Shown here: piece after piece, positions 1 through 21,993 of the stretch
How positions within the stretch are numbered: position 1 is the first letter of the stretch
Layout: each line of letters begins with the position of its first letter
DNA from: Patescibacteria group bacterium
GTDB taxonomy: Bacteria; Patescibacteriota; UBA1384; UBA12157; JAENIV01
Direction of reading: 5' to 3'
NCBI GenBank assembly: GCA_049515915.1
Contig: JBEKTP010000002.1
Coordinates: forward strand, 36,524-100,523
DNA: 64,000 bases
Notes under the pieces: generated by a model
Told to the model about the DNA's origin: nothing
The model's input: only the letters and a program-made list of their open reading frames with translations
Database searches by the model: none
Made by a program: the position numbers and the translations under genes

Positions 1-336
1 CATCAAGAATTTAACGGATCATCGAGTTCGGAAATTAACGCTGGTAATATGTTACAATGGTCGGACGATGATTTGAAAATGAAATTCGGTGTTCTGGCGG
101 CTTATCACCTGCCCGGCGTAGGCCAAACGGATCTCAAAGCCGCCGGCAATTCGGTTGATATTTTCCGCCTCGTTTTAGACCACTATTTCGGCTACAATTT
201 ACCTTATTTACCCGAATGCTATTATGCTTATCCGAACGGACGCGTCCAACCCTTCCGCTACGAAAATATTAACGTTCAACTAACTGGCCAAGCCAATTCC
301 GTTTGTCCGGCCAATAGTGATTTTAATTCTCATTAA
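1..336 (+). CDS. C-terminal fragment of an unidentified protein; ORF is open from the window start
   Basis: Frame 1 has no stop between nt 1 and the stop at 334-336; product not recognised. Confidence 0.4.
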   Translation, partial: HQEFNGSSSSEINAGNMLQWSDDDLKMKFGVLAAYHLPGVGQTDLKAAGNSVDIFRLVLDHYFGYNLPYLPECYYAYPNGRVQPFRYENINVQLTGQANSVCPANSDFNSH

Positions 337-724: not shown

Positions 725-1030
725 TTACTCTTCTTCCTTTTCTTTGCCATGCCAGCCATGCATGCCGTGCTTTTCTTTCCAATCCATTTTCATATCGCTC
801 TCGATTGCCATATCAAGCATCTTCTTTAAAACCTCTTTAACTTTGGCCTCTTCCATCCCCTTTTCTTTGAGCGAGTGTTTGACTTTGGCGATGCCAAACA
901 TTATTTTTTTGGCACCCCACATCACATGCTCATCAACCATATCCTTGTCGAGCCCCAGCTCTTTCCACTTCTTCATCATTTCTTCTTTAGCTTTTTCGTC
1001 CATCATTTTAATCACCTCCCTTCTTAGCAA
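725..1030 (-). CDS. small K/E-rich hypothetical protein with a His/Trp/Gly C-terminal tail
   Basis: 101-aa ORF; the opposite-strand ORF 717..1037 is low-complexity; terminator lies downstream. Confidence 0.4.
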   Translation of the reverse strand: MLRREVIKMMDEKAKEEMMKKWKELGLDKDMVDEHVMWGAKKIMFGIAKVKHSLKEKGMEEAKVKEVLKKMLDMAIESDMKMDWKEKHGMHGWHGKEKEEE

Positions 1031-1107
1031 AATGTAATACGAGACTTTAGTGAAACTTCTTTCATTGAGGTCTTGGCAACAACTTTAAGACACGTTAAAA
1101 TTAAGAA

Positions 1108-2331
1108 GTGTTAAACATCAAAAATTATAATCTCAGAAGTAGTAGCGGCCGATCTCGAAAGCGGTTTACCTGGCCATTGATAATTCTCCTGCTTATTGCC
1201 TATATCGTGGTTGTTTTATTTTTGCCGCTTCCAAAATTAACTGCTCAAGGGGCCAATATCCCGCTCCCGGTTTCTTATCAAGCCTCTATTTCTTGGCCCG
1301 CCTATGGCCAAGCGGCCGTGGGCGCTCAAAATTACGGCGTTTTAGCCACGCACGGCAAGCAGGTCGGCACTCCGATTGCTAGCATCGCCAAAACGATGGT
1401 CGCTTTGGCGGTTTTAAAACAAAAACCGCTCAAACTTGACGAGCAAGGCCCTTCCGTCACAATGACAGCGAATGACGTGAAACTTTACTCGGCCGCTTTA
1501 GCTCAAAATGGCTCGGTCGTACCCGTTCAACTGGGCGAGAGCTTAACTGAATACCAACTCCTCCAGGCCCTGCTTGTTCCTTCAGGCGATAACATTGCCG
1601 ACTCTTTAGCCGATTGGGCCTACGGCTCGACAACTAATTATCTAAGTTTTGCTAATGAGCAGGTTGCCCAGTGGGGATTGAAAAACACCCATTTTGCCGA
1701 TGCGAGCGGCCTTTCCGCCCAAACGGTCAGCTCGGCCGAAGACTTGGTCATCTTAGGCGAAAAAATCCTCGCCGAACCGGTTTTAGCCCAGATCGTCAGC
1801 CAAGCCCAAGTGACTTTACCGATTATTGGGACGGCGCGAAATTATAATAGTATTTTAGGTCAGGAAAATATTATCGGCATTAAAACCGGTAATACGAACG
1901 AAGCCGGTGGTTGTTTTCTTTTTGCCGCCAAAACAAGTATCAACAACGAAGACGTGACGCTGATCGGAGCGATCTTAGATGCCACCAGTCGAAACCAAGC
2001 ATTGGCCGACACTAAAACTTTTTTGCGCACTAACGCCGGGAGCTTTCAGTTGGCCACCACCGTCTTGGCCGGTCAGGAAGTTGGTTCCTATCAGACGCCT
2101 TGGGGTAAAGAGATAAAGGTTACCGCCAAAAGCGACCTCTCAATCCTGACACTGGCGGGCGAACCGCTTTCGGTAAAAGCCAATTTCAACCCCATCACGA
2201 AAGCAACTAAAAAAGGAACAATAGTTGGCACAATTACCGCCACTTCAGGAGAAGCGACCGCCACGGTGCCAGCTGTGCTGGAAAGTACAATCTCCCGCCC
2301 ACCATTCTTTTGGCGTCTCTTTCATCCTTAA
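1108..2331 (+). CDS. dacA: D-alanyl-D-alanine carboxypeptidase (peptidase S11, PBP5/6-like)
   Basis: SxxK (ASIAKT), SGDN and KTGNT motifs in order; N-terminal membrane anchor. Confidence 0.8.
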   Translation: MLNIKNYNLRSSSGRSRKRFTWPLIILLLIAYIVVVLFLPLPKLTAQGANIPLPVSYQASISWPAYGQAAVGAQNYGVLATHGKQVGTPIASIAKTMVALAVLKQKPLKLDEQGPSVTMTANDVKLYSAALAQNGSVVPVQLGESLTEYQLLQALLVPSGDNIADSLADWAYGSTTNYLSFANEQVAQWGLKNTHFADASGLSAQTVSSAEDLVILGEKILAEPVLAQIVSQAQVTLPIIGTARNYNSILGQENIIGIKTGNTNEAGGCFLFAAKTSINNEDVTLIGAILDATSRNQALADTKTFLRTNAGSFQLATTVLAGQEVGSYQTPWGKEIKVTAKSDLSILTLAGEPLSVKANFNPITKATKKGTIVGTITATSGEATATVPAVLESTISRPPFFWRLFHP

Positions 2332-2373
2332 AATAATTTTCTCCACTTGTGATATAATTATAGATAGAAACCT

Positions 2374-3942
2374 TTGGAAGGGGCCATGTCATATCTCAAA
2401 CGCTTGGGCAAAGCCGATTTACACATCCATAGTAATTATTCCGACGCCAAAATGTCCGTCTCGGACATTTTAAATTACGCCGAAAATAAAACCGATCTTG
2501 ATATTATCGCCATCACCGACCACAACACGATTTCGGGCGCTCAAAATGCTCAAAAGATTGCTCTTGAAAAGAATCTACGGGTCAAAGTTATTGTGGGCGA
2601 AGAAATAAGTTGTCGAGAAGGCCACATTGTGGCCTTATTTTTAAAAAAAGAAATTCCTAAAGGATTAAGCCTTGATGAAGCAATTATGCGAATTAAAAAA
2701 CAAGGCGGCCTTGCAATCGCCCCTCATCCATTTTTCCGCACTCCACTTAAAGAAGATCATACAATTTTGATGAACGGAATCGGTTTAGAAAAACTGCTGA
2801 AGTTTAAGACTAAATTTGACGCCGTCGAGATAGCGAACGCCAATTTAGTTCTCGGAAAATCAAACCTTAAAGCGCAGCTTTTTAATCACCTCTTCATCCG
2901 TCAAAGCGAGCTCGGTTCTAGTGACGCTCATATAGTTGAGGCCATCGGCAAAAGTTTCACCGCTTTTGAAGGAAAAAGCCTTATCCGTCTTAAAAACGCC
3001 CTCAAAAACCATCAGACCGTCGCCTGCTCTAACCGATGGAAGATGGTAAATTTGTTCAAATACGGCTTTCTATTTTTACCGACCACTCTGATGTTATTTT
3101 CACGCATGCTGAACCGAAATTTCGTCGATTCAATTTTTAAAATTTCGGCCGTCACTCACCTCTTCACTCTCTTTTTGCTCCGCCAATTTAAAAATTTAGC
3201 CGTTTTATATCGATACAATCGCTTAAAATTTGCGGCCGCCAGTTTTTTGTTTTTAATTTTCGCTATCATTGCCATCTTTTCACCAAACGCTAAATTCCAA
3301 CTCGACCGCTCAACCGATTATCTTCAAGGAATCGGCGCTAATATCATTAAGGTTCACGCCGCTTCTGGCCTGGCCAAAGTCAAGCACGCCGAAATTTATA
3401 TTAATCCGCTGGATAATGAAATGGCCATCTTGATCGGGATTTTACTTTTTCTTATTATTATTTCGCTGAATCCCGAACCGCTCAACGGGTTAGGACAAGA
3501 CGCGCTCGCCGGGCCAAAAAGAATAACTTTGATGTTGGAAAAAAACCCAAGAAACAGACACATCCAAAAAATATTAAAGCTTTTAAAGCAAGAAAACGTC
3601 AAAGGTGTCGCCTACCATCGCTGTTTAACCTTGCCTTTTACCAATCGGCGAAAAGTCACTCAACTTATCAGTGTCGATGAAGCCGGCTGGCGGTTGATTT
3701 TGTGGGATATGGAGAAAAGTCCCAAAAATTTAAAACCAGAAGTTTTGGCCGAAAAAGTTTTAGACAATATAAGATTTAATTCAATTTTGGTGCTTCATCC
3801 CGGCTTAGATGAGAATCATCAGTCACTTGAGGCACTTAAAATAATCATCCAAGAACTCAAAAAACAAGGTTATCAATTCACTCATTCTGCCGATTTTATA
3901 TCGTTTAATCCATTCAAAACGGCCGAAAGTCTTAACTCTTAA
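2374..3942 (+). CDS. PHP-domain phosphoesterase fused to a polytopic membrane segment and a C-terminal polysaccharide-deacetylase-like region
   Basis: N-terminal DLHIHSNYSD...AITDHN PHP motifs; central hydrophobic helices; C-terminal VLHPGLDEN...ELKKQGYQF resembles the end of NodB-type deacetylases. Confidence 0.55.
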   Translation: MEGAMSYLKRLGKADLHIHSNYSDAKMSVSDILNYAENKTDLDIIAITDHNTISGAQNAQKIALEKNLRVKVIVGEEISCREGHIVALFLKKEIPKGLSLDEAIMRIKKQGGLAIAPHPFFRTPLKEDHTILMNGIGLEKLLKFKTKFDAVEIANANLVLGKSNLKAQLFNHLFIRQSELGSSDAHIVEAIGKSFTAFEGKSLIRLKNALKNHQTVACSNRWKMVNLFKYGFLFLPTTLMLFSRMLNRNFVDSIFKISAVTHLFTLFLLRQFKNLAVLYRYNRLKFAAASFLFLIFAIIAIFSPNAKFQLDRSTDYLQGIGANIIKVHAASGLAKVKHAEIYINPLDNEMAILIGILLFLIIISLNPEPLNGLGQDALAGPKRITLMLEKNPRNRHIQKILKLLKQENVKGVAYHRCLTLPFTNRRKVTQLISVDEAGWRLILWDMEKSPKNLKPEVLAEKVLDNIRFNSILVLHPGLDENHQSLEALKIIIQELKKQGYQFTHSADFISFNPFKTAESLNS

Positions 3943-5728
3943 TTTCTTTGACCGCCAAGAGCTCGTTAAAGCCAAGATTGGAAAGTATTTTCCCCCTAAG
4001 AATGGGGATTTTTAGTTGGCTTTGATAAACGCCTACCGCTTGAGATTTTACCTTGAGTGCATTTTCATCGAGGGGAAATTTTTGCCAGTCGCCGGCGCGA
4101 CGAGAAGAAATAGCCCAAATCAAATAACGATAAACTTTTCCTGGGAAATTCTCATTTACTAGAATTTGTTCCACTACTTGGCTCGTCATCCGATGATCGG
4201 GGTGCAGGTCGTGCGGATGAGGACAAAGGACAATATCGGGCGAGAACTTCTCGATCAATTCTTGAAAACTTTTTCTGAGACCGTCTCGAGCAAATCTCAA
4301 CCGACCGTCTCGATAATTTAAAAAAAATAAATCGGATTCTTTGACACCAAGATGGCTCGTCGCCTGACGAAACTCCCGAAAGCGCCGATCTTTTTGGTGA
4401 AGCATATTGCCGTCGGTGACCAAAACAATTTTTACTTTTGCTCCGGCTTTCACCGATTCATAAATAAAACCGCCCGCCCCGATTGATTCATCATCAGGAT
4501 GAGGGGCAAAAACTAAAACTTTTTCGTTTTTCCGCGGGAGGGCAATATCTCGATTGAGAGCCAGATGTTTTTTGACCAATCCAGCAAAGCAGACTTCAGT
4601 TTGACTTAAAACGTTCTTGATGCTATGTTTGGCCGCCAATTTTAACGAGGACTCGCCCATTTTTTTTCTGAGCTCGTCGTTTGATAAAATTCGGATAATT
4701 TTTTCGGCTAAATCATGGCTCTTTTTACTCTCAAAGAGCAAACCATTTTTTTGATCAAGAATTAATTCCGGCAAAGCGCCAGCGTTGGCCCCGACAATCG
4801 GCAAACCGACGGCCATCGCTTCCAGTGTCACTTTACTTTGAGTCTCATAACCGGCCGGGATGACAAACAAGGACGCCGCTTGATAAAGACGCGGCAAATC
4901 GCTCGAGTTAAACGGCACAAAACCTAAGAAGCTGACCTCTCTTTTCAGATTTTTCTTGGTCGCTAACTTTTTTAGATGCTTTAAATCTTGACCTTGACCC
5001 ACGATGGCAAAATGGACGTCAATTTTTTGGAGAACTATTGGCACCGCCTCAATCAAAGTCGTGAGGTTTTTATCAGCGTCAATCCGCCCAGTAAATAAAA
5101 TTAAGGGTTTTTGAGGGAGATGATATTTCGAGAAAATCTTGTTCGAATCCGTTTTAGCGGGCGAAAATCGCTTAGTGTCCACCCCGTTAGAGATAACTTC
5201 AATCGGTTGGCAGATTCCCCAAGATTGAAGGTCTTTTTTGACCGTTTCACTCGGGCATAAAATCAAATCGCAATGACTATAGAAACTTTTAAGATATTTT
5301 TTAACCACCAATCTTATGGGCGGGTGAAAAGCCCAAAGCCGTCGAACATAAGTTAAAAGAAAATCTAAATTGAAATGAACTGTCGCCACGATTGGAATGT
5401 TTTCTTTTTGAGCTGATTTTAAAAGACCGGTGCCGATATGGAGTGGATCATGAATATGGATGAGATCAGGTTTGATTTTTCTAACCGCTAAAAGAATTGA
5501 TTTCTTACTTCCCTTAGCCACCAATAAATCTTGCCGAAATAGATACGGGCTCGAGCGAAAGCGAACCACTTTAAATTTGAATTGGTCATCTCGCGCGGCT
5601 GGATTTTCAGGCGCAAAAACAAAAACCTCATGGCCTTTCGCGGAAAGATCGCCGGCTAAAGTTTCGGCCGCTAAAGCTACCCCCGAAACAAACGGGGCAA
5701 ATTGATCCGAGCCAATTATTATCTTCAT
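3932..5728 (-). CDS. bifunctional GT4 glycosyltransferase / LmbE (PIG-L) family N-acetylglucosaminyl deacetylase fusion
   Basis: N-terminal GT-B GT4 fold; C-terminal KVLVFAPHPDDESIGAGG PIG-L signature; 598 aa. Confidence 0.7.
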   Translation of the reverse strand: MKIIIGSDQFAPFVSGVALAAETLAGDLSAKGHEVFVFAPENPAARDDQFKFKVVRFRSSPYLFRQDLLVAKGSKKSILLAVRKIKPDLIHIHDPLHIGTGLLKSAQKENIPIVATVHFNLDFLLTYVRRLWAFHPPIRLVVKKYLKSFYSHCDLILCPSETVKKDLQSWGICQPIEVISNGVDTKRFSPAKTDSNKIFSKYHLPQKPLILFTGRIDADKNLTTLIEAVPIVLQKIDVHFAIVGQGQDLKHLKKLATKKNLKREVSFLGFVPFNSSDLPRLYQAASLFVIPAGYETQSKVTLEAMAVGLPIVGANAGALPELILDQKNGLLFESKKSHDLAEKIIRILSNDELRKKMGESSLKLAAKHSIKNVLSQTEVCFAGLVKKHLALNRDIALPRKNEKVLVFAPHPDDESIGAGGFIYESVKAGAKVKIVLVTDGNMLHQKDRRFREFRQATSHLGVKESDLFFLNYRDGRLRFARDGLRKSFQELIEKFSPDIVLCPHPHDLHPDHRMTSQVVEQILVNENFPGKVYRYLIWAISSRRAGDWQKFPLDENALKVKSQAVGVYQSQLKIPILRGKILSNLGFNELLAVKEIKS

Positions 5729-6717
5729 GCCAGTCTGAGAACCTTTTTATATTCAAGCAATGTTTTTTTGGCAATCGAAATCACGCTTTTTTCAGCGGCC
5801 AATTTCCTAGCATTTCTACCCAAACAGTCTCTTAATTTTTTATCTTTAATCAACCGCGTCAGATATCTTTCAAATTCGCGTTCATTTTTGGCTTTCAGAC
5901 AATTTTGGCCATGAACCAGCCATCCCTTATAGACCGGAATATCGCGCACTAAAATCGGCAAGCCGTAGGCAGCGGCCTCCACGACCGCCATCCCTTCATT
6001 TTCCTCAACAGACGGAAAAACAAAAATATCTAAACTGTTGAAGGCCTCGTCAATATGTTCGACATAGCCAGTAAATCTAATATTTTGAGGCAATTTTTTC
6101 GCGGAATTTTTAATCAAGGCGCCGCTAAGACTAAAAAGTCGCCCAAACCAGAGAAAGTTATTTCGGGGAAATTTCTCAGCTAAGTGGACAAAAGTATTGA
6201 CCCCTTTGCGCGGCATAACCAAGCCGACGGTCCCAACGACCACACCGCCATTTAATTTAAACTTCTTTTTGCCGGCCATGGCTTTGGCTTCGTCTTTGAA
6301 GTGTTTTGCCAAATCAACGGCGTTAGTGTGGACAACAATTTTTTCGGCCGGCAAACCATAACTTATCAGGATGGATTTGGTGTATTCGGTCGGTGAAAAA
6401 ATCAGGTCGGCTGAGCCATAAACATAAGTTAGATATTTTCTAAAAAATGGGATGACAAAAGGGATAGCTTTAAACATTTGGGCGGTATCTTCGACGGTTG
6501 TATGAGACCAAATAACAACTTTTTTACCCTGGCGCTTAGCTTTTTTCATCAAAAAAAGTGAGCGCGGCCAAGGCGAATTAAGCTGCAAAATATCGCACGA
6601 TTCATTATATCGAGTTGTAAAAGGAATACCTAACCTCTTCAAAATCACCTTCTGATTTTTATAAGAAGAAAGAATACCGCCGGAATGATAAAATTCTAAA
6701 TAAAGACAAATCTTCAT
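5725..6717 (-). CDS. glycosyltransferase family 4 (GT1/GT4 fold)
   Basis: EGMAVVEAAAYGLPILV E-x7-E motif; likely start is the ATG at 6717 (MKICLYLEF), abutting the DedA stop. Confidence 0.75.
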   Translation of the reverse strand: MKICLYLEFYHSGGILSSYKNQKVILKRLGIPFTTRYNESCDILQLNSPWPRSLFLMKKAKRQGKKVVIWSHTTVEDTAQMFKAIPFVIPFFRKYLTYVYGSADLIFSPTEYTKSILISYGLPAEKIVVHTNAVDLAKHFKDEAKAMAGKKKFKLNGGVVVGTVGLVMPRKGVNTFVHLAEKFPRNNFLWFGRLFSLSGALIKNSAKKLPQNIRFTGYVEHIDEAFNSLDIFVFPSVEENEGMAVVEAAAYGLPILVRDIPVYKGWLVHGQNCLKAKNEREFERYLTRLIKDKKLRDCLGRNARKLAAEKSVISIAKKTLLEYKKVLRLA

Positions 6718-7304
6718 CGGGAATTTTTCGATTTTACTCTTCTTGTTATCCAAATATAAACCAAAATGCCTAAAATGACCAGCCCCGCGACAGCCCAAGA
6801 TAAATCATGTGAATATCGGCTTAACCTTAAATAAAGTTGGGCAAAATAAAATCCAACCAAGAGAAAGAAAAGGGTTTTTGGCACGGTGGCCAAAAAATTA
6901 TACCAGATAAAATCCCAGAGCGGCATGGCCGCCATACCAGCGGCGACCAGAATCGGCCCGCCGACCGCCTGAGTCAGTTTACCAATAATTAAAGTGCGCG
7001 CTCCCTGATTACCAAAATGACTTTCGAGACGGTCGATTCGACTTTCCGTCAGACCAATCCACCGCCCCCATTTTTTCACAAATACCCGTCCGCCATAACG
7101 CCCGAAGGCGTAGTAAATGATGTCACCGACTAAATCAGCAAAGATAATGATGGGCAAAGCAATAAAAAAATTAAAAACACCAACCGAGGCAAGCGAGCCC
7201 GCCACTACCGTCACGATCGGCCCGGCCACCACCATCAAGGGGAATAAAATATAATATCGAAAGTGGACCAGCCACTGGGCAATTTGTGGTTCGGAAAAAT
7301 GCAT
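6714..7304 (-). CDS. DedA / SNARE-associated family membrane protein
   Basis: Multi-TM protein with GRYGGR...VGFYFAQ DedA-type motifs. Confidence 0.65.
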   Translation of the reverse strand: MHFSEPQIAQWLVHFRYYILFPLMVVAGPIVTVVAGSLASVGVFNFFIALPIIIFADLVGDIIYYAFGRYGGRVFVKKWGRWIGLTESRIDRLESHFGNQGARTLIIGKLTQAVGGPILVAAGMAAMPLWDFIWYNFLATVPKTLFFLLVGFYFAQLYLRLSRYSHDLSWAVAGLVILGILVYIWITRRVKSKNSR

Positions 7305-7435
7305 TGGCTCCTATCAAAAAGGATTTTGGCCTGGGTTTTTTGCGCCTCGTGATTAAATTATATCAAGGCCTGAAAAAAGTTTCAAACTTATTTGACGATT
7401 GTTACCAGCCAGACGACAATTTTTCAAAGGAAAGG

Positions 7436-7954
7436 TTAAGTCGAGGTGCCATTCGAGTTAGAACTGTTAGTACTTCCACTACCATTAAATCCGCCCGAGC
7501 CCGGGCTAAAGTTTGTCGGTCGCTGAAACTGACCGATAATAATCATCCGCGGCGTAATATCACTTGAAGTAGTGTCGCTCGCCATGACATTGATTTCATC
7601 TCCGACCTTAAGATCAGAAAGTGATAGCTGAGTCATCTGACCATTTTGTTGTTCCATAATTCGAGTCGAAGAGGAAATGTCGATATTTTTAGTTGAACCA
7701 TCGTCGGCTTTCATAACGATCGTTTGGCCATTGAGCGCGGTAATATTGCCGTGTAAAGGTTTAAAATTGTCCCGACTGCCGCCAAAGCGTCTTGAACCGC
7801 TCGATCCACTCTGGCTACCGCTATTGGCGGAAGCTTGTTGATTACTCGATTTTGAGGATTTGAATAATTCATAGCCGCCGAAAATTGCCGCGAGGATCAC
7901 GACAAAAATTAAAATTAAATAAGGCAGGTTCTTTTTAAAATCTTTTTTGCCCAT
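7436..7954 (-). CDS. membrane-anchored or secreted S/G/N-rich hypothetical protein
   Basis: N-terminal TM helix and low-complexity S/G tracts; ATG at 7954 or 7978. Confidence 0.45.
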   Translation of the reverse strand: MGKKDFKKNLPYLILIFVVILAAIFGGYELFKSSKSSNQQASANSGSQSGSSGSRRFGGSRDNFKPLHGNITALNGQTIVMKADDGSTKNIDISSSTRIMEQQNGQMTQLSLSDLKVGDEINVMASDTTSSDITPRMIIIGQFQRPTNFSPGSGGFNGSGSTNSSNSNGTST

Positions 7955-8071
7955 AAATCTTTCTTTAATATTAATCAAAAAATCTGGGTTAAATGTAACC
8001 CTATTTATAGATACGCTAATTAAGTTAAAAATATTTCAAAGAGTGGCTATGAACCCAAATATCTAGCTCGT

Positions 8072-8239
8072 TTAATAATTTTGGCCGATTTTATAGCCAA
8101 TATAGACACCCAAAAGAGCCCCGACGGTGCCGGTCAAAACTGAAGTGATTGAAAGCGAACTGACACCGAAAATAAGCGGCAGATAACCACCCACAAAAGA
8201 GCCGACAATCATCCCGACGCCAATAAATAACTTCTGCAT
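8072..8239 (-). CDS. GlsB/YeaQ/YmgE-family small membrane protein (transglycosylase-associated protein-like)
   Basis: 55-aa ORF absent from the track (MQKLFIGVGMIVGSFVGGYLPLIFG...); Gly-zipper helices typical of the family. Confidence 0.45.
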   Translation of the reverse strand: MQKLFIGVGMIVGSFVGGYLPLIFGVSSLSITSVLTGTVGALLGVYIGYKIGQNY

Positions 8240-8397
8240 AGTTCTATTCTATCATTAAATCTCTAAGCTTTTTTGATGGCTCCCCGACAATTCAAAATTT
8301 ATAGACCTACTAAACGATTATGAATACTGGAGGATAGTGAAGAGAAAGATGGCAGTGTTGCAATGGGCATAGAATTACTTATAATGCAAAATTAATT

Positions 8398-10008
8398 TTA
8401 TAGCTTGCTAAGCCAATTGGAAATATAAGCCAAAATTTTATCAAAAAAACTTGTTTGATTCATTCCGGTTGCCGGTAAAGCAGTGACGACAGATGTAGCG
8501 GGAGTAGACGTAATATCACCCGCGTATTTGATAATAACGGTGTTGTCGTTATTAATTGCACCGGTCGCCGTCACATTATTACCGAAATTATATTCACCGT
8601 TACCATCAATCATACCCACCGCATAAGCATTACCATTAGAGTCAACCGAAATACCATAAAGGTAGCAATCTTCCGGTGCAGTGACGGCTGAACTAGCCCA
8701 TTGAGCTACGCCACTGGAATTATATTTGATGACAAAACCGTTATTATCATCAGCATCACCGCCGCTCACGGTCACACCGCTACCAAAATTAAATTTCGTA
8801 TTGCTGCCAATCTCGCCCGCGGCATAAACATTGTCACTAGAGTCAACTGAGATACTGGTAAAATAGGAATCGCTTGGCGCCGCCGGCGTGGTTGATTTAG
8901 CCCACTGAGCCAGACCGCTGGAATTATATTTGACAATGATCGTATTGTCACCAGAGCCATCGCCGCCAGTTACCGTCGCGCCGTTACCAAAATCAAATTC
9001 GCTATTGCCGCCAATCTTACCGGCCGCATAGATATTATTATCAGAACCAACCACGATGCCGGTAAAAGTAGAATCGGCCGGCGCCGTGACAGCCGCTTTG
9101 GCCCACTGGGCGACGCCGGCTGAGCTGTATTTGATGATAACGGCGTTGTCGCTGGAATTATCTTTGCCAGTTACCGTCACGCCATTACCGAAATCATATT
9201 CGCCGCCGTCGCTGATGTAACCACCAATGTAAATATTATTATCAGCACTAACCGAAACACTATCAAACCATGCAATGCTTGGCGCCGTGATGGCGCTTTC
9301 GGCCCACTGGGCCGTGCCGCTGGAGTTATATTTAACGATGACGCCGTTATCCGTCGCACTATTACCAGTTACCGTTGCGCCGTTGCCGAAATCATATTGA
9401 GTATTGCCGTCAATATAGCCAACTGCGTAAATATTGTTATCAGGGCCAACCGAGATACCATTGAAACCAGAATCGCTTGGCGCGGTAGCGGCAGTTTTGG
9501 CCCACTGGGCGACGCCGGCTGAGCTGTATTTGATGATAACGGCGTTGTCGTTTCCAGCATCGCCGCCAGTTACCGTTGCGCCGTTGCCGAAATTAAATTC
9601 AACGTTGCCGTTGATGTAACCACCGACGCAGATACTATTATCAGGACCAATCGCGAGAGCACTAAAAAAGGAGCTACCTGGCGCCGTGGAGGCGGTTTCG
9701 GCCCACTGGGTTACGCCGCTAGAGTTGTACTTAACGATGACACCATTATCAGTTGCATTATTGCCAGTTACCGTCACGCCATTACCGAAATCAAATTCGC
9801 CGTTGCCGTTAATATGGCCGGCGGCATAGATATTGTTTCTGGAGTCAACCGCCGTCGCAAAAAAATCGGAACCGGCTGGCGCTGTCACAGTTGTTTCGGC
9901 CCACTGAGGATCACCCGGTGTTGAAGCGGCTAGTGCTATCCCCGACCGAGACAAAAACAAAGTTAACATAAATAGATCAATTAAAACCAAGGTTAGATTT
10001 TTTTTCAT
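8398..10008 (-). CDS. secreted SBBP-type beta-propeller repeat surface protein with C-terminal LPATG motif
   Basis: About nine ~55-aa repeats (QWA..TAP..SxF..ISVDSDNNIYAAG.I.GN.EFDFGNG.TVTG...DN.VIIKYNSSG); signal peptide from the ATG at 10008 (MKKNLTLVLIDLF); ends ...TALPATGMNQ... Confidence 0.65.
   Translation of the reverse strand: MKKNLTLVLIDLFMLTLFLSRSGIALAASTPGDPQWAETTVTAPAGSDFFATAVDSRNNIYAAGHINGNGEFDFGNGVTVTGNNATDNGVIVKYNSSGVTQWAETASTAPGSSFFSALAIGPDNSICVGGYINGNVEFNFGNGATVTGGDAGNDNAVIIKYSSAGVAQWAKTAATAPSDSGFNGISVGPDNNIYAVGYIDGNTQYDFGNGATVTGNSATDNGVIVKYNSSGTAQWAESAITAPSIAWFDSVSVSADNNIYIGGYISDGGEYDFGNGVTVTGKDNSSDNAVIIKYSSAGVAQWAKAAVTAPADSTFTGIVVGSDNNIYAAGKIGGNSEFDFGNGATVTGGDGSGDNTIIVKYNSSGLAQWAKSTTPAAPSDSYFTSISVDSSDNVYAAGEIGSNTKFNFGSGVTVSGGDADDNNGFVIKYNSSGVAQWASSAVTAPEDCYLYGISVDSNGNAYAVGMIDGNGEYNFGNNVTATGAINNDNTVIIKYAGDITSTPATSVVTALPATGMNQTSFFDKILAYISNWLSKL
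8480..9960 (-). repeat. intragenic tandem coding repeats (~165-bp units) in the SBBP gene, including exact ~50-bp duplicates
   Basis: 9101-9152 and 9501-9552 are identical (gcccactgggcgacgccggctgagctgtatttgatgataacggcgttgtcg); periodic reuse of ccactgggc...ttatatttgac blocks. Confidence 0.7.
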
Positions 10009-10106
10009 TATTCCCTTCAAAAATCTAAAAACTATTGCACATATATTATATACCAAAGCTCTATAAAAACAAAAAACGGCCACCCATTTGCCGCGATTTT
10101 CGAAAT

Positions 10107-10383
10107 TGGCTCCCCGGGTCCGATTCGAACGGACAACATGCTCCTTACACTGATCTCCTAATTGCTTAAGAGGGTGGACTATCTCATCGCCATCTCTTTT
10201 GATTTAGGCGTAGGGCATATAGTCTCTGAACCTTCAACGATGTTACCATCGAAGCTTGGCTGCGGATTACCCTTTGATTACTCTTGGGGTTTCCCGACAA
10301 TTAACCCTATTTTTCAATCCGCCTTTCAGCGGAAAGCTGCAATATTCTTACAGGGAGCCGCTCTACCGTTGAGCTACCGGGGA
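10107..10383 (-). tRNA. tRNA (most likely Asn, anticodon GUU) interrupted by a group I intron in the anticodon loop
   Basis: Exon 1 (10383..10350) forms acceptor, D arm and anticodon stem; exon 2 (10147..10107) gives anticodon stem GGAGC, T arm and CCA; U1-A72 with G73 fits Asn; the alternative reading is Thr(UGU). Confidence 0.7.
10148..10349 (-). ncRNA. group I self-splicing intron (~202 nt) within the tRNA
   Basis: Conserved P (AAUUGUCGGGAAACCCC), Q (AAUCCGCAGC), R (GUUCAGAGACUAUA) and S (GAGAUAGUCC) elements in canonical order; candidate P1 CUGU/GCAG with U:G at the 5' splice site; intron ends in G. Confidence 0.7.
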
Positions 10384-10426
10384 ATAATACTTTATATCTT
10401 AAATCATAACCACAGAATGGTCAACC

Positions 10427-16796: not shown

Positions 16797-19700
16797 TCAT
16801 TCCTTATCGATGATATCGGAAAGCATGATTTTCTTTTCGACCGAAGCAATCAGTTTGCGAGTTTTAACGACCGAATCCGGCGAAACGGAAACCGAAGTCG
16901 CCCCTTCTTTAACCATCAGTTCGGCGATTTCCGGATAAGTCGTCGCCGCCTGACCGCAAATCGAACAAGTGATATTGTGGGCACGGCAGGCCTTAATCAC
17001 ATGGGCAATCGACAAGGTCACTGCCTCATCTCGTTCGTCAAATTCAGCCGCCATCGTTTCATTATCACGGTCAATCCCTAAAGTAAGTTGGGTCAAATCA
17101 TTTGAGCCAATCGAAATGCCATCGATGCCTTCCTCGATAAATTTATTGATTAAAATCACGTTCGAAGGAATCTCACACATCATCCAAAGTCGGAAGTCCG
17201 GGCCTTGTTTTAAACCCGAATCGGCGATCAAAGCTTTGACTTTTCTGAGCTCGTCGATAGTTCGGACAAACGGAATCATCAGCCATAAATTTTTGCTATT
17301 TTTACGGACTTTTTTAATCGCTTCCAATTCCAGCTTAAATAAATCCGGTTCTCTAATATAGCGGCTGGCGCCGCGATAACCGATCATCGGATTATTTTCA
17401 ACCGGCTCGATATCCTTGCCGCCCTCTAGGTTCCGGTATTCATTCGTTTTAAAGTCAGTCGCCCGATAGACCACCGGCCGCGGGAAAAATGCTTGGCAGG
17501 TCATCAGCAACCCTTCTTCGAGCTTACTAATATAGATGCTGGTCTTGCCTTCATTAACCAAGGCACGCGGGTGCTTGCCGATTTCAGCGATCATAAATTC
17601 CGCCCGCATCAGTCCGACGCCGTCGCAAGGCAATTTGGCCACTTTTTCGGCGGCCGAAGGCTCACCCAAATTAACATAGACTTTGGTGGCGGTGATTGGG
17701 ACCTCCTCGGCAAAACCACCCATGTCATCTTGATGGGCCGGTGCCTCTTCGCGAGAGACTTTGCCTTTATAAACCAGGCCTTTAGCGCCATCAACCGAGA
17801 CCACTTGGCCCATCGTTAAGGTATGAGTGGCGGTGCCGGAACCGACAACACAAGGAATCCCGAGCTCTCGGGAAACTATTGCTGCATGGCTTGTTTGTCC
17901 CCCGGTGTCGGTGACAATTGCCGCTGCTTTTTTCATGGCCGGTACATAGTCGGGCGAGGTCATTTCAGTAACTAAAACATCACCCTTTTTTACTTCATCA
18001 ATTTGATCGGGAGAATGAATAATTTTGACTGGCCCCGATGCCAACCCGATCGAAGCGGCTAGACCTTTCAAAATGACATTTGCTTTTGACTCTTCCTGCC
18101 CAGACTCCGGCGTTTCACCTTTTTGATTTTTAATATTTGATTTTTGATCTATCGTCGTAATCGGTCTCGACTGGACAAAATAAATATCTTTACCTTCAAT
18201 CGCCCACTCCGTATCTTGCGGAAAGTGGTAGTGATTTTCGATTTGTCTACCAAACTCGGCGACTCGTTTGATTTCTTCGTCGGAAAGTTTTTGTAATTTT
18301 TGTTCGTTTTTTAGCAAACTGACATGTTTATCGGCATTGCCCACTTTAGCAATTTTCCAAGGTTGCACATTAACTTCTTTAATTTCAATTTTCTGATCTT
18401 CTTTGTTAACAACATAACGGTCAGGAGTGACCGAACCAGAAACAATCGCTTCACCTAAACCAAATCCTGCCTCGATCACAATTTTGCTTTTATCATTGTC
18501 AACCGGATTGATCGTAAACATAATGCCAGACTTTTCAGACTGGATCATCTTTTGGATGGGAATGGCAATACCCACTTTCATATGATCAAAATTGTTAATC
18601 TTACGATAATAGATTGCCCGGGCCTCAAATAACGATGCCCACGACATTTTCACTGCTTTGACAACTTCGGTGCTCCCAGAGACATTTAAAAATGTTTTCT
18701 GCTGCCCCGCAAAAGAAGCCGAATTATGAGTAAAAATTCCGCCGAGACCAGCAGCAAAATTTTCATTTCCTGGCACAGAAAAGTCATAAACATCACCACA
18801 ATACTCAACCGGTTTAACTTCTTTAATTTCATCCCATAATACATCACGATCAAATATTCGATCAAATCCTCTAATATGGTACTGATCGAGAATTTGTTTA
18901 AATCTATTCTTGCTTAATCGTCCCGTGATCAAACCTTTATTCCAAGGAGCGGCTCCTTTTAAAAATCTTCCGGCCGCGTCATACCAAATATGGGTCTTGA
19001 TTTTTTCCTTATTCACCTGCTTTAAATAAAAAGAATGATGACATTTTTGACAATAAAATCTTAATCTGTTTTTATAACAACCCGATTTTTTTAATATAGT
19101 TTGACATTTCTGACAGCGGTAATGATACCTTTGTTCCTGTGGTAATCCTTCGATGAATTTTTGTCTGATTTGATAAGCAATTGTTTTCGAGACATCGATA
19201 TTTTCTTTAAATTCTTGATGATTACTCTTTTTCATATACTGTTCAACTAACATTTGTAATTTTTCTTTCTTATTTGGATGACTAAAGTTAACTCGCTCTT
19301 GAAAATTCTTAAAATCGGCATGAAGAATATAAATTGTTTGAGAATTATTTTTTTGCGTGAGAGAGAATCTCAAGCCTAATCTTTCAAGAAGTTTCACAAT
19401 TCCACCAATTAATAACGGGGAAGTCGAAGTATAACTTAAACTCGTATCAACCCCTCCATCTCCATCAAAACAACCTTGGAGAAACTCACCGATTAATTTT
19501 TCATTTAAGCTAAAAACAAAATCTGGTACCTTTTTAATCGAGCACGATCTTCCCTTGCCAATTTGAGCGGTCGGCTTTCCGGTTAGTTCATGAAGTAACC
19601 TGACAAGAGATTTGCAGTAAACCCTGATAGAACCTTTATTGATCTTTTGATTATGGTAGAGTCCTAATGATCGTAAAAAGTCCATAATTCTTCGCCGAAT

Positions 19701-20669
19701 AATAAGATTACTGCTCGTGACAACAACACAATTATTCTTATAAGTACATCCTTCAGCAACATAAATACCCAGAAAATAAAGCAGATCACCATTAATGATG
19801 ATTCGATTGGAGAGTGAATGCTGAATGCTCCAATTCATTGATTGATTGGTAATTTGAAGATAACCCGCTTTTTCAACGACATCGGCCCCTTGAACATAAT
19901 CCTTCACAACAAGATATTTTTGTTCTGCTCCTAGATTAGGGAGTTTTTTAATACAAGGTACCCGGCCATCTCTAATATTTTCGACAGCAATAGTCTTGGG
20001 CAACAAAGTCTCATTATCTAAAATAAGAGCTGAATGATTAGAACTAATCGTAATTTCTCGGCCAGTAGCGGTTTTTATTTTATAAAGTTTTTTATTGTTA
20101 ACGGGATGACGATAAAAATTGCTCACTTTCTTCCAAGTAATTCGACCATCTTTCATTGAGGGAATTCGAACCTTGCAAGCTAGATTTCCATCACTATCGA
20201 CCGTTCGACGATAGATATCTTTTATGGGTGAAAAAACCACCCGATCATTGATTTTGGCTATAATCTGCTCGTCTTCAGACACACTCGGTAGATCTTCAGC
20301 CGTGGCTGAAGATCTCACGGCTACAAAAATACTTGAGGCCTGAGTTGTGTAGAGCTTTTTATAAGCGGCGCTAATTTCGCTTTCTAAAGATTTTGGCATC
20401 GGCTCAGAAAGAATTTCTTTTTGGATATTGCTAGCCGTTTTATTTAACTCTTTCGAATTATTGACATCAAGATTTTTTAAAAGTTTATTAATGGTGATAT
20501 CCAAATTAGTGCTTTTGAGAAAATTAAAGTAAGCGGTGGAAGTAACAATAAAACCCGGCGGCACGGGCAAGCCCGCTCGGGTAAGTTCGCCTAAATTCGC
20601 GCCCTTACCGCCGACCAAACCAACGTCACCCTTGCCGACTTCCTTAAACCAAACAATATTTTTCGTCAA
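16797..20669 (-). CDS. ppsA: phosphoenolpyruvate synthase (pyruvate, water dikinase) interrupted by an intein
   Basis: N-terminal PEP/pyruvate-binding domain; phospho-His GGQTSHAAIVSRELGIPCVVG; C-terminal PEP-utilising domain; the VRSSATAEDLP / SASFAGQQ motif is split by ~521 aa. Confidence 0.85.
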   Translation of the reverse strand: MTKNIVWFKEVGKGDVGLVGGKGANLGELTRAGLPVPPGFIVTSTAYFNFLKSTNLDITINKLLKNLDVNNSKELNKTASNIQKEILSEPMPKSLESEISAAYKKLYTTQASSIFVAVRSSATAEDLPSVSEDEQIIAKINDRVVFSPIKDIYRRTVDSDGNLACKVRIPSMKDGRITWKKVSNFYRHPVNNKKLYKIKTATGREITISSNHSALILDNETLLPKTIAVENIRDGRVPCIKKLPNLGAEQKYLVVKDYVQGADVVEKAGYLQITNQSMNWSIQHSLSNRIIINGDLLYFLGIYVAEGCTYKNNCVVVTSSNLIIRRRIMDFLRSLGLYHNQKINKGSIRVYCKSLVRLLHELTGKPTAQIGKGRSCSIKKVPDFVFSLNEKLIGEFLQGCFDGDGGVDTSLSYTSTSPLLIGGIVKLLERLGLRFSLTQKNNSQTIYILHADFKNFQERVNFSHPNKKEKLQMLVEQYMKKSNHQEFKENIDVSKTIAYQIRQKFIEGLPQEQRYHYRCQKCQTILKKSGCYKNRLRFYCQKCHHSFYLKQVNKEKIKTHIWYDAAGRFLKGAAPWNKGLITGRLSKNRFKQILDQYHIRGFDRIFDRDVLWDEIKEVKPVEYCGDVYDFSVPGNENFAAGLGGIFTHNSASFAGQQKTFLNVSGSTEVVKAVKMSWASLFEARAIYYRKINNFDHMKVGIAIPIQKMIQSEKSGIMFTINPVDNDKSKIVIEAGFGLGEAIVSGSVTPDRYVVNKEDQKIEIKEVNVQPWKIAKVGNADKHVSLLKNEQKLQKLSDEEIKRVAEFGRQIENHYHFPQDTEWAIEGKDIYFVQSRPITTIDQKSNIKNQKGETPESGQEESKANVILKGLAASIGLASGPVKIIHSPDQIDEVKKGDVLVTEMTSPDYVPAMKKAAAIVTDTGGQTSHAAIVSRELGIPCVVGSGTATHTLTMGQVVSVDGAKGLVYKGKVSREEAPAHQDDMGGFAEEVPITATKVYVNLGEPSAAEKVAKLPCDGVGLMRAEFMIAEIGKHPRALVNEGKTSIYISKLEEGLLMTCQAFFPRPVVYRATDFKTNEYRNLEGGKDIEPVENNPMIGYRGASRYIREPDLFKLELEAIKKVRKNSKNLWLMIPFVRTIDELRKVKALIADSGLKQGPDFRLWMMCEIPSNVILINKFIEEGIDGISIGSNDLTQLTLGIDRDNETMAAEFDERDEAVTLSIAHVIKACRAHNITCSICGQAATTYPEIAELMVKEGATSVSVSPDSVVKTRKLIASVEKKIMLSDIIDKE
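18723..20285 (-). mobile_element. intein (~521 aa) with LAGLIDADG homing endonuclease and C4 zinc ribbon, inserted in ppsA
   Basis: Begins SVSEDEQ... just after AEDLP and ends ...GIFTHN with Ser at +1; block B TISSNH; LAGLIDADG-like LGIYVAEG and GCFDGDGG; C-terminal VYDFSV...IFTHN; CQKC..CQKC ribbon. Confidence 0.8.
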
Positions 20670-21276: not shown

Positions 21277-21993
21277 TCACTCTATTTTCTCTAACTTAGC
21301 TTGGAAAACCAAACGTTTCCAATCTGTATACGGTGGGTCGCAGGTATAAAAGGTCAACATCCAGTCATCAACATTTTGAAATAAGCTAGTGTCAGTCGGC
21401 GAAACTGTCTGGCTCTTAAAAACCTGATAATCATAGTTTTTACCTTCGTAATTAATTGTCACCATATCGCCAACGGATACATCGCGCAGTTTAAAAAAAA
21501 CCTTAGCGTAAGGATTATTGGGATTTAAATCGGTGTTATGGCCCGCTAAAACGACATTACCTTTTTGATTTGGCCAAACCGAGTCGGGATGATGACCGAT
21601 TCCTTTGGAAAGTGAATCCTCGCCGATGCCTTCAATAATCGGTGCGTTGATTTCAATTTTGGAATTTTTTAAATAAAAAGTGGCCACGCCGGCAATGGGC
21701 GAGGGAGATACCGAGAGCGTGGGCGAGGGCAAGCTCTCGCCTAAAATTTGAGAACCGTTTTGGTGATTGATAGCACTTTTAATCCAATAATTGAGCCATG
21801 GTTCGGCGATAATGACAAAAACGGTGACAATCCAGAAGGTTAAAACAATTTGAGCGACGCGATAAAAATAGTAGACGTTCGAGTTCGGAGACGCTTTTCG
21901 GCTCTTTTTGAGAATTGACTCAACTTCTTTCAAATCGAGAACATTATTAGGATTTGATTTATCCGGCCGGCCAATTGTATCAAATGATTTCAT
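21277..21993 (-). CDS. sortase (transpeptidase)
   Basis: N-terminal TM anchor; catalytic His in VVLAGHNT, Cys in LTFYTCDP, Arg in WKRLV. Confidence 0.75.
   Translation of the reverse strand: MKSFDTIGRPDKSNPNNVLDLKEVESILKKSRKASPNSNVYYFYRVAQIVLTFWIVTVFVIIAEPWLNYWIKSAINHQNGSQILGESLPSPTLSVSPSPIAGVATFYLKNSKIEINAPIIEGIGEDSLSKGIGHHPDSVWPNQKGNVVLAGHNTDLNPNNPYAKVFFKLRDVSVGDMVTINYEGKNYDYQVFKSQTVSPTDTSLFQNVDDWMLTFYTCDPPYTDWKRLVFQAKLEKIE

Follow-up and report, generated by a model that had tools for sequence, protein, structure and literature searches.

We analyzed a 64,000-nucleotide stretch of the genome of a Patescibacteria group bacterium (contig JBEKTP010000002.1 of assembly GCA_049515915.1, positions 36,524 to 100,523 of the forward strand), hereafter the window, and focused on a locus near its beginning in which a single polypeptide joins a family 4 glycosyltransferase (GT4) to an LmbE/PIG-L de-N-acetylase. 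An initial annotation, made from the sequence alone, had placed the fused gene in a minus-strand operon with DedA and a second GT4, with a PHP-family phosphoesterase gene converging on it and a D-Ala-D-Ala carboxypeptidase gene upstream of the latter. All four open reading frames (ORFs) were reproduced at the same coordinates, Pfam profile searches bore out each domain (the GT4, PF02585 and PF02811 calls were right), and the upstream neighbor is indeed a carboxypeptidase of the S11 family. The locus contains the following features (positions counted from the first nucleotide of the window; aa, amino acids):

1108-2331, plus strand: S11 D-Ala-D-Ala carboxypeptidase (PF00768, E 2e-29), syntenic in locus L001; a neighbor whose relation to the pathway is one of context
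2374-3942, plus strand: PHP-membrane-CE4-like protein, 522 aa, converging on the minus-strand operon
2374..3099, plus strand: PHP phosphoesterase domain, aa 1-242 (PF02811); start probably ATG 2386
3100..3417, plus strand: hydrophobic middle region, aa 243-348, with transmembrane (TM)-like segments; ratio of nonsynonymous to synonymous substitution rates (dN/dS) 0.12
3418..3939, plus strand: CE4 (NodB-type) domain in degenerate form, aa 349-522, which has a membrane anchor of its own and no longer the catalytic motifs
3932-5728, minus strand: GT4::LmbE (PIG-L) fusion, 598 aa, assigned by Pfam domains
3935..4552, minus strand: LmbE/PIG-L de-N-acetylase domain of the fusion, aa 393-598 (PF02585); no membrane anchor
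4553..5728, minus strand: GT4A domain of the fusion, aa 1-392 (Pfam GT4 domains); proposed UDP-N-acetylglucosamine (UDP-GlcNAc):lipid GlcNAc-transferase
5725-6717, minus strand: GT4B, 330 aa (GT4 domains); the ORF itself extends to 6798
6714-7304, minus strand: DedA/VTT membrane protein, 196 aa (PF09335, E 9e-17)
7357..7385, minus strand: promoter-like site TTGAAA-17-TATAAT with a TG-extended -10, a consensus match only

DedA, GT4B and the GT4::LmbE fusion are one minus-strand operon with the fusion gene last, because their start and stop codons overlap as ATGA at 6717-6714 (DedA/GT4B) and 5728-5725 (GT4B/fusion) and a strong promoter-like site stands ahead of DedA. This site (7385-7357) agrees with the consensus in 11 of 12 positions, has the top score within 900-8400 and lies ~53 nt upstream of the DedA start. 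The true start of GT4B is almost certainly the ATG at 6717, which gives 330 aa as in its homologues.

The N-terminal half of the fusion matched the Pfam families Glyco_transf_4 (aa 14-187) and Glycos_transf_1 (aa 197-361, E 6e-42), and both GT4 genes of the operon belong to the GT4 retaining glycosyltransferases of GT-B fold. H118, R215, K220, E295 and E303 of GT4A are invariant in the family alignment (A1), and E295/E303 form the EX7E motif (nt 4820-4846). The C-terminal half matched PIG-L (PF02585) over aa 405-522 (E 3e-31, 109 bits against a cut-off of 28), and it is a member of the LmbE/PIG-L zinc de-N-acetylases by this profile and by both motifs. Motif 1 reads literally A-P-H-P-D-D-E, the AHPDDE signature noted initially (HPDDE at aa 410-414, nt 4487-4501), and motif 2 is HPDH (H509-H512, nt 4193-4204). 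Loss of the zinc ligands had been named beforehand as an observation that would speak against the initial interpretation; in alignment with the solved structures of diacetylchitobiose deacetylase and TT1542, H410, D412, D413, H509 and H512 fall on the same motifs, and the His/Asp ligands are intact. Both halves are under purifying selection, with dN/dS of 0.12 for GT4 and 0.13 for LmbE. In an AlphaFold model the GT4 half has a predicted local distance difference test (pLDDT) above 90, and its last helix (aa 370-392) leads, after a short linker, to the opening strand of LmbE.

An assembly artefact can be dismissed: NCBI MGA2666635.1 ('Patescibacteria group bacterium') has the identical protein on 28 contigs, and two other assemblies contain an orthologue of 95% identity that is likewise fused and has the same architecture and synteny, with both halves constrained as given above. 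A word-indexed search of 5.8 billion proteins yielded one other fused protein, which is this orthologue, and the remaining close relatives, at 40-52% identity, consist of a GT4 alone (about 390 aa). An exhaustive HMMER search with the LmbE domain against 1.84 billion cluster representatives gave 27 matches below 1e-30, and only the window's own cluster among them is fused to a GT4. More distant LmbE domains have been joined independently to GT2 or GT4 in other orders (P0306, P0303, P0315, P0310, P0361, P0305). Thus, glycosyltransferase-LmbE fusion as such is recurrent, and this particular fusion is rare and lineage-specific.

In the closest unfused relatives of the GT4 the same two activities are encoded side by side. 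The LmbE gene overlaps the GT4 stop in all eight whose neighborhood was read (L003-L007, L011, L018 and L050), namely two metagenomic Patescibacteria contigs, four Syntrophomonas/Bacillota, one Saccharimonadales and one Berkelbacteria genome. These overlaps mark GT4 and LmbE as a conserved functional unit, in support of the pairing stressed initially. Of the seven loci in which the position of DedA could be evaluated, six have it directly beside GT4-LmbE and one lacks it; the remaining contig stops short of this region. DedA is convergent in two Syntrophomonas cassettes. We refer to this GT4-LmbE-DedA arrangement as cassette A. In five of seven unfused cassettes there is neither a further glycosyltransferase gene nearby nor a polymerase, Wzx-type flippase or ligase; by analogy with the gpgSDF and hexSDF operons discussed below, these five look like self-contained synthase-deacetylase-flippase modules. 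About 27 additional loci, spread over several phyla, likewise have DedA next to a member of the GT4A family. In the Streptosporangiaceae genera Nonomuraea, Streptosporangium, Planobispora and Spongiactinospora, DedA, a gene of ~280-315 aa (X) and a GT4A-family gene stand in a row (L052, L060, L069, L070, L074-L080, L082, L084). Streptosporangiaceae are chemotaxonomically known for uncharacterised glucosamine-containing phospholipids, which would be in keeping with this arrangement. Gene X was considered as a deacetylase and rejected, as it matched no Pfam or NCBIfam family and gave just a weak sub-threshold NIPA-like membrane match in one locus; no deacetylase was found in these DedA-X-GT4A loci.

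The other two genes of the operon have relatives of a different kind. Judged by its profile matches, GT4B is a homologue of diglycosyl-diacylglycerol (DAG) synthases. It aligned end to end with NCBIfam IagA/BgsA (NF053513; 28-354 against 1-332 of 333, 273 bits, cut-off 460) and over the full length with the processive DAG alpha-glucosyltransferase Dgs (217 bits), and its homologues across Patescibacteria, 50-63% identical, carry the JGI name 1,2-diacylglycerol-3-alpha-glucose alpha-1,2-glucosyltransferase (EC 2.4.1.208). The EX7E residues E238/E239 and E247 are invariant in alignment A3, and dN/dS is 0.06. DedA matched VTT_dom with 62 bits against a cut-off of 34, has four TM-like segments and shows a dN/dS of 0.19. 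A metagenome scan anchored on GT4B gave 79 loci (L093-L171) besides the window's own. A GT4 resembling monoglycosyl-DAG synthases (MGS-like) lies directly upstream of GT4B, often with an ATGA overlap, in 53 of 57 evaluable loci; an alpha/beta-hydrolase gene (Abhydrolase_1) precedes the MGS-like GT4 in 46 of 46, and DedA is within 2.5 kb of GT4B in 44 of 46. The full order DedA -> alpha/beta-hydrolase -> MGS-like GT4 -> GT4B, which we term operon B, was conserved in 38 of 46 evaluable loci, for example on the Patescibacteria metagenome contigs L098 (4366-8011) and L116 (4415-8011). No LmbE gene was present anywhere in the 79 GT4B-anchored loci. The MGS-like GT4 and GT4B, which resembles diglycosyl-DAG synthases (DGS), mirror the MGS/DGS gene pairs of Firmicutes. 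One possible role for the alpha/beta-hydrolase is that of a lipase providing or remodeling scavenged lipid. We found no description of operon B in the searchable literature.

Compared with these two modules, the window locus is a hybrid of operon B and cassette A. Its DedA is of the operon-B type, with E-values of 1e-54 to 1e-57 to operon-B-like DedAs (L013, L053) versus 7e-6 to the DedA of cassette A. The fused GT4 is 41-48% identical to LmbE-linked GT4s and 26-34% (median 30%) to the MGS-like GT4s of operon B, and the eight sequences most similar to it are all LmbE-linked. The GT4-LmbE unit, as one gene, stands downstream of GT4B where an MGS-like enzyme would normally act, and the hydrolase and the operon-B MGS-like GT4 are absent from the 64-kb window.

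The fusion has a further predicted consequence, which concerns the side of the membrane on which the amino sugar is deacetylated. Every unfused LmbE of cassette A has a K/R-rich start followed by a hydrophobic helix. More broadly, 36 of the 45 closest LmbE representatives have an N-terminal TM segment, with the positive charge on its N-terminal side in 31 of the 36, so that by the positive-inside rule the catalytic domain is predicted to lie outside. In one close relative we noted what looks like a cleavable signal peptide, together with Cu_amine_oxidN1, a domain seen mainly in secreted and cell-wall-associated proteins. The fusion has no TM-like or hydrophobic segment anywhere in the protein, and its LmbE domain must be cytoplasmic because it is part of a GT4 that uses a UDP-sugar. 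Since fusion removed the LmbE anchor, deacetylation is predicted, from sequence only, to take place inside here and outside in the relatives, a predicted shift from one side of the membrane to the other. For the amino-glycolipid systems hexSDF (PMC10128005) and gpgSDF (PMC12713373), the side of deacetylation was explicitly left open.

The N-terminal domain of the convergently encoded PHP protein matched PF02811 (E 1.4e-9, 38.9 bits against a cut-off of 26.4), with PHP_C at its cut-off, and belongs to the PHP family by its readable metal motifs HxH (DLHIHS), DH (TDHN), E (GEE), H (APHP) and DAH (SDAH). It scored 75 bits against the CehA/McbA-type metallohydrolase model (cut-off 80), and its dN/dS is 0.21. 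The domain shares 56% identity with its counterpart in PHP-GT2 fusion proteins of 571 aa. In L087 (4313-6738) and L090 (3-1897) the PHP-GT2 gene is followed by an intact membrane-anchored CE4 (TFDDGP, HSYSH), and in L090, whose source sample also yielded one contig with the fused gene, the pair adjoins GT4B and DedA. The same PHP clade also includes fusions with GT4 (P0194, P0201, P0202, P0179) and with STAS anti-sigma-antagonist domains. The window protein has no GT2 domain, and its middle region was rejected as a remnant of the GT2/TM part of PHP-GT2, to which it has no similarity (z = 0.07).

The 174-aa tail of the PHP protein, described initially as deacetylase-like, is homologous to CE4 over its whole length: aligned with the complete L087 CE4 including the anchor, it scored 117, as against 38.8 ± 7.5 for shuffled sequences (z 10.5). 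The NCBIfam CE4 (PdaB-type) match is confined to aa 433-505, corresponding to the last third of the CE4 models, and no Pfam CE4 match was obtained. The catalytic part of that description did not hold, and the tail is not a member of the catalytic CE4 enzymes, since motifs 1 and 2 are lost: TFDDGP is replaced by LMLEKNP (Asp-Asp to Glu-Lys), and the HSYSH (His-x-x-x-His) segment is deleted. Decay of the tail was considered and rejected, with a dN/dS of 0.16, still constrained, from small counts (10 nonsynonymous versus 15 synonymous); the PHP domain and the middle region are constrained as well, with counts that are likewise small. A reasonable but unproven scenario is that a GT2 and CE4 'add and deacetylate' pair was displaced by GT4::LmbE, and the PHP domain and a non-catalytic CE4-like module were kept. 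The initial annotation had also suggested that a PHP enzyme could supply a phosphatase step. The PHP gene adjoins none of the eight unfused cassettes and is not part of the conserved cassette, which speaks against a role in the pathway, and the repeated fusion of its clade to GT2 or GT4, with one relative beside a GT4-DedA pair, speaks for it; a link to the pathway through a putative PHP phosphatase is possible. Synthase-phosphatase fusions are a known paradigm. PgpP, considered as a model for such a phosphatase, is a HAD enzyme and not relevant.

With moderate confidence, we propose that the operon makes a membrane glycolipid containing glucosamine (GlcN) by means of a GlcNAc-lipid synthase, a de-N-acetylase and a flippase. 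In the first step, at the cytoplasmic face, the GT4A half would move GlcNAc from UDP-GlcNAc to a membrane lipid, most likely DAG or glycosyl-DAG and possibly phosphatidylglycerol (PG). De-N-acetylation at the His/Asp/His zinc site of the fused LmbE half would then expose an amine that can be protonated. GT4B would add another hexose, before or after the GT4A transfer, and DedA would carry the product to the outer leaflet, where it may lower the negative surface charge or serve as an anchor. To our knowledge, all characterised LmbE-family enzymes (MshB, BshB, PIG-L, diacetylchitobiose deacetylase) de-N-acetylate GlcNAc conjugates. GlcNAc transfer followed by de-N-acetylation is the most economical chemistry because GT4 and LmbE are tightly and repeatedly coupled, the GT4 half resembles MshA and BshA, and LmbE enzymes act in this way. 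The acceptor is probably a lipid, because the partner GT4B is a diglycosyl-DAG-synthase homologue, the closest unfused GT4A relative is matched best by monoglucosyl-DAG (MGlcDAG) synthase (152 bits, full length), DedA co-occurs with the GT4A family in many phyla, and the LmbE relatives are membrane-anchored. The suggestion, already made at the outset, of a membrane-associated GlcN glycoconjugate with DedA as candidate flippase is the best reading of the locus, and within it a DAG-based lipid is favored over a PG-based one. Domain content, conserved residues, linkage and constraint are direct observations. We infer donor, acceptor, product and flippase role, and all functional statements made here rest on gene neighborhood and on homology below family-specific thresholds.

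Several points weigh against the GlcN-glycolipid proposal, and some of them favor other products. No family-specific (equivalog) threshold was reached by the fused GT4, whose best NCBIfam matches were the GlcNAc-PG synthase GpgS (125 bits, cut-off 480), MGlcDAG synthase (121, cut-off 400) and BshA (114, cut-off 274), or by its operon partners (BgsA 273 of 460 for GT4B; the undecaprenyl-phosphate transporter UptA 74 of 250 for DedA), and because of this the donor and acceptor are putative. The LmbE half of the AlphaFold model is of low confidence (pLDDT 35-73) because the structure run used A1; the combined GT4 and LmbE alignment (A2) was misaligned, with LmbE-only rows set on the GT4 half, and A1 was used for the model. 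There is a conflict between the outside location predicted for unfused LmbE and the cytoplasmic position that fusion imposes, and the same flippase would have to accept different lipid forms. Net charge was considered as a sign of membrane binding and rejected: the fusion has an isoelectric point (pI) of 9.65, but half of the window proteins have a pI >9. As the proteome of the window is basic overall, with a median pI of 9.0, the high pI of the glycosyltransferases is uninformative.

That GpgS is the top NCBIfam match of the fused GT4 bears on the acceptor. GpgS is itself a GT4 and the logic of gpgSDF is identical, so that the operon might make GlcN-PG as in Pseudomonas, with GT4B serving an unrelated glycolipid step. 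We give this alternative a slim chance: the score reaches one quarter of the cut-off, MGlcDAG synthase and BshA score as well, and translational coupling of the fusion to a diglycosyl-DAG-synthase homologue suggests one shared pathway.

Structural comparison draws attention to soluble acceptors. In a Foldseek search against solved structures, MshA and BshA were nearest to the GT4 half (E about 1e-25, TM-score 0.85), MshA being the top match with just 20-22% identity, and BshA was the second-best NCBIfam match of the closest unfused relative (142 bits). In both score and superposition, enzymes with soluble acceptors are thus about equal to the lipid enzymes. A soluble GlcN conjugate, thiol-like or resembling a compatible solute, made as by MshA/MshB or BshA/BshB with the PHP protein dephosphorylating the acceptor, would accord with this and with the fusion of the PHP clade to glycosyltransferases, which recalls synthase-phosphatase pairs. 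We nevertheless consider such a product very improbable. The cut-offs of BshA (114 versus 273.7 bits), BshB1 (73 versus 182.5) and MshA (90 versus 462.5) were all missed, and no cysteine-ligase-like (BshC/MshC-like) gene was found among the 30 annotated ORFs of the 64-kb window; by these measures the locus belongs to neither the bacillithiol (BshA/BshB/BshC) nor the mycothiol (MshA/MshB/MshC/MshD) pathway. In addition, the LmbE partners are membrane-anchored, with a signal peptide in one close relative; DedA and a lipid glycosyltransferase share the operon; and the PHP gene is missing from all eight unfused cassettes. The low-molecular-weight thiol pathway put forward initially as an option is accordingly unlikely.

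A third product is suggested by DedA, whose best named NCBIfam relative is UptA, and by the unfused cassette of L003, which shares a tight operon with another GT4 and a WecG/TagA-family GT26, a pointer to an undecaprenyl-pyrophosphate-linked glycan. The operon could thus build or modify a cell-wall glycopolymer linked to undecaprenyl-(pyro)phosphate, either teichoic-acid-like or a secondary cell-wall polymer, with the GT4s extending the lipid-linked intermediate by further sugars, LmbE de-N-acetylating a GlcNAc residue and DedA recycling the carrier as UptA does. An extracytoplasmic location, as in polymer-modifying deacetylases, is predicted for unfused LmbE; the structural matches to GT4s that act on undecaprenyl-pyrophosphate acceptors, PglA among them, are good as well; and wall polymers are expected, given the SLH-domain protein and the sortase encoded in the window. 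The UptA score is, however, far below its cut-off, five of the seven unfused cassettes lack the additional glycosyltransferase, polymerase, flippase and ligase genes of such a system, and GT4B belongs to the diglycosyl-DAG-synthase family, in an operon type where it is paired with an MGS-like GT4. We regard a wall glycopolymer as rather unlikely, although the GT26 of L003 and the UptA-like score of DedA lend it real weight.

The remainder of the window contains several features apart from this operon. It begins (1-336, plus strand) within the 3' end of a gene for a 592-aa protein, complete in L001 (13516-15294), where 3.7 kb separate it from the PHP gene. Its N-terminal region of ~230 aa precedes a domain of the sulfatase family (aa 236-542), an order that recalls LtaS/EptA; the Pfam match is weak (E 6e-9), no NCBIfam match was obtained, and the protein was not used as evidence. 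An acidic (pI 4.1) repeat protein with a hydrophobic N-terminus and beta-propeller (SBBP) repeats is encoded at 8398-10083 (minus strand), a sortase at 21277-21993 (minus strand) and a protein with three SLH domains at 22103-23581 (minus strand); these are envelope features of Gram-positive type. A similar SBBP protein adjoins the PHP-GT2 gene in L087. At 10100-10420 (minus strand), a group I intron (RF00028, 82 bits, E 2e-19; Rfam 10155-10359) splits the anticodon loop of a tRNA that ARAGORN missed in the unspliced sequence, and removal of the intron gives a cloverleaf. The junction that follows the group I rule (5' exon ending in U, intron ending in G) yields the loop CU-UGU-AA and, tentatively, tRNA-Thr(UGU), as the anticodon changes with the junction chosen. 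The pyruvate phosphate dikinase gene (16797-20669, minus strand) contains an intein with a LAGLIDADG homing endonuclease (about aa 172-649), and the 1161-aa ORF at 60408-63893 (plus strand) matched no Pfam family at E ≤ 1e-5.

Patescibacteria are ultrasmall and mostly host-dependent, and their membrane lipids are essentially uncharacterised, with dependence on host lipids presumed. If our proposal is true, an operon that re-headgroups DAG and its cationic amino-sugar variant are concrete candidates for building and charge-tuning the envelope. The substrates of DedA proteins are an active question, and a DedA kept beside glycolipid-type GT4s across phyla offers a genetic handle on glycolipid flipping. 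Likewise, the anchored LmbE predicted outside and the anchor-less fused LmbE inside provide a natural experiment on the side of deacetylation. As a bolder and distinctly tentative suggestion, operon B would be an undescribed, widely conserved Patescibacteria glycolipid operon with DedA as its dedicated flippase, and the lineage of the window would have captured GT4-LmbE as a bifunctional enzyme, a third independently evolved route to a cationic GlcN lipid with deacetylation moved inside.

The locus had initially been called undescribed. This stands for the literature that could be searched, where nothing pertinent was found on GlcN-DAG, on LmbE with DedA and a glycolipid, or on Patescibacteria lipids; the 'GlcN-DAG' of PMC11630815 was rejected, as it appears to mean glucosyl-DAG glycolipids (Glc-DAG, Lys-Glc-DAG), not glucosamine. 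It does not extend to the synthase-deacetylase-flippase logic, which is known from hexSDF and gpgSDF, as are the component families and the pairing of GT4 with LmbE from other systems. What appears to be new is the combination of LmbE as a putative glycolipid deacetylase, DedA as a flippase candidate and a single-polypeptide GT4::LmbE, together with the hybrid origin of the locus, the predicted topology switch and the widespread operon B.

Among known systems, MshA/MshB, BshA/BshB and PIG-A/PIG-L share with the window a retaining GT4, with UDP-GlcNAc as the donor also proposed here, followed by an LmbE zinc de-N-acetylase. PIG-A/PIG-L act on a membrane lipid. The window enzymes differ in being fused and in having DedA and a glycolipid glycosyltransferase as partners, with no thiol-ligase genes nearby. 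In the MGS/DGS pairs BgsB/BgsA, IagB/IagA and alMGS/alDGS, two adjacent GT4 paralogues likewise resemble mono- and diglycosyl-DAG synthases, but the MGS-like member of the window has an LmbE domain, belongs to a clade other than that of the canonical Patescibacteria MGS-like gene, and stays below the equivalog thresholds. The Staphylococcus aureus ypfP-ltaA pair is a glycolipid synthase-flippase operon; the window operon also includes a flippase candidate, which is a DedA protein and not a major facilitator superfamily (MFS) protein.

Two further parallels are operons that make amino-sugar lipids. In Pseudomonas aeruginosa, the gpgSDF operon combines a GlcNAc-lipid synthase of family GT4 with a de-N-acetylase and a predicted flippase and leads to GlcN-PG (PMC12713373). 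The same three-part logic would lead to a cationic or zwitterionic amino-sugar lipid here, and among named families the fused GT4 scored highest against GpgS. The window operon is not a gpgSDF member by the GlcN_PG_synth model (125 versus 480 bits). Its deacetylase is LmbE-type (PF02585) and its flippase candidate DedA (PF09335), whereas those of gpg are COG3233 and UPF0104/MprF-like; moreover, synthase and deacetylase are one polypeptide, accompanied by an extra diglycosyl-DAG-synthase-like GT4. In Clostridioides difficile, hexSDF adds N-acetylhexosamine to glycosyl-diradylglycerol, deacetylates it and flips it, and the resulting aminohexosyl-hexosyl-diradylglycerol alters resistance to cationic antibiotics (PMC10128005). 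None of its three proteins is homologous to those of the window, HexS being annotated as MGDG-synthase/MurG-like, HexD a CE4 enzyme and HexF MprF-like; yet the product would be of the same class (HexN-Hex-DAG) if GT4B supplies or extends hexosyl-DAG.

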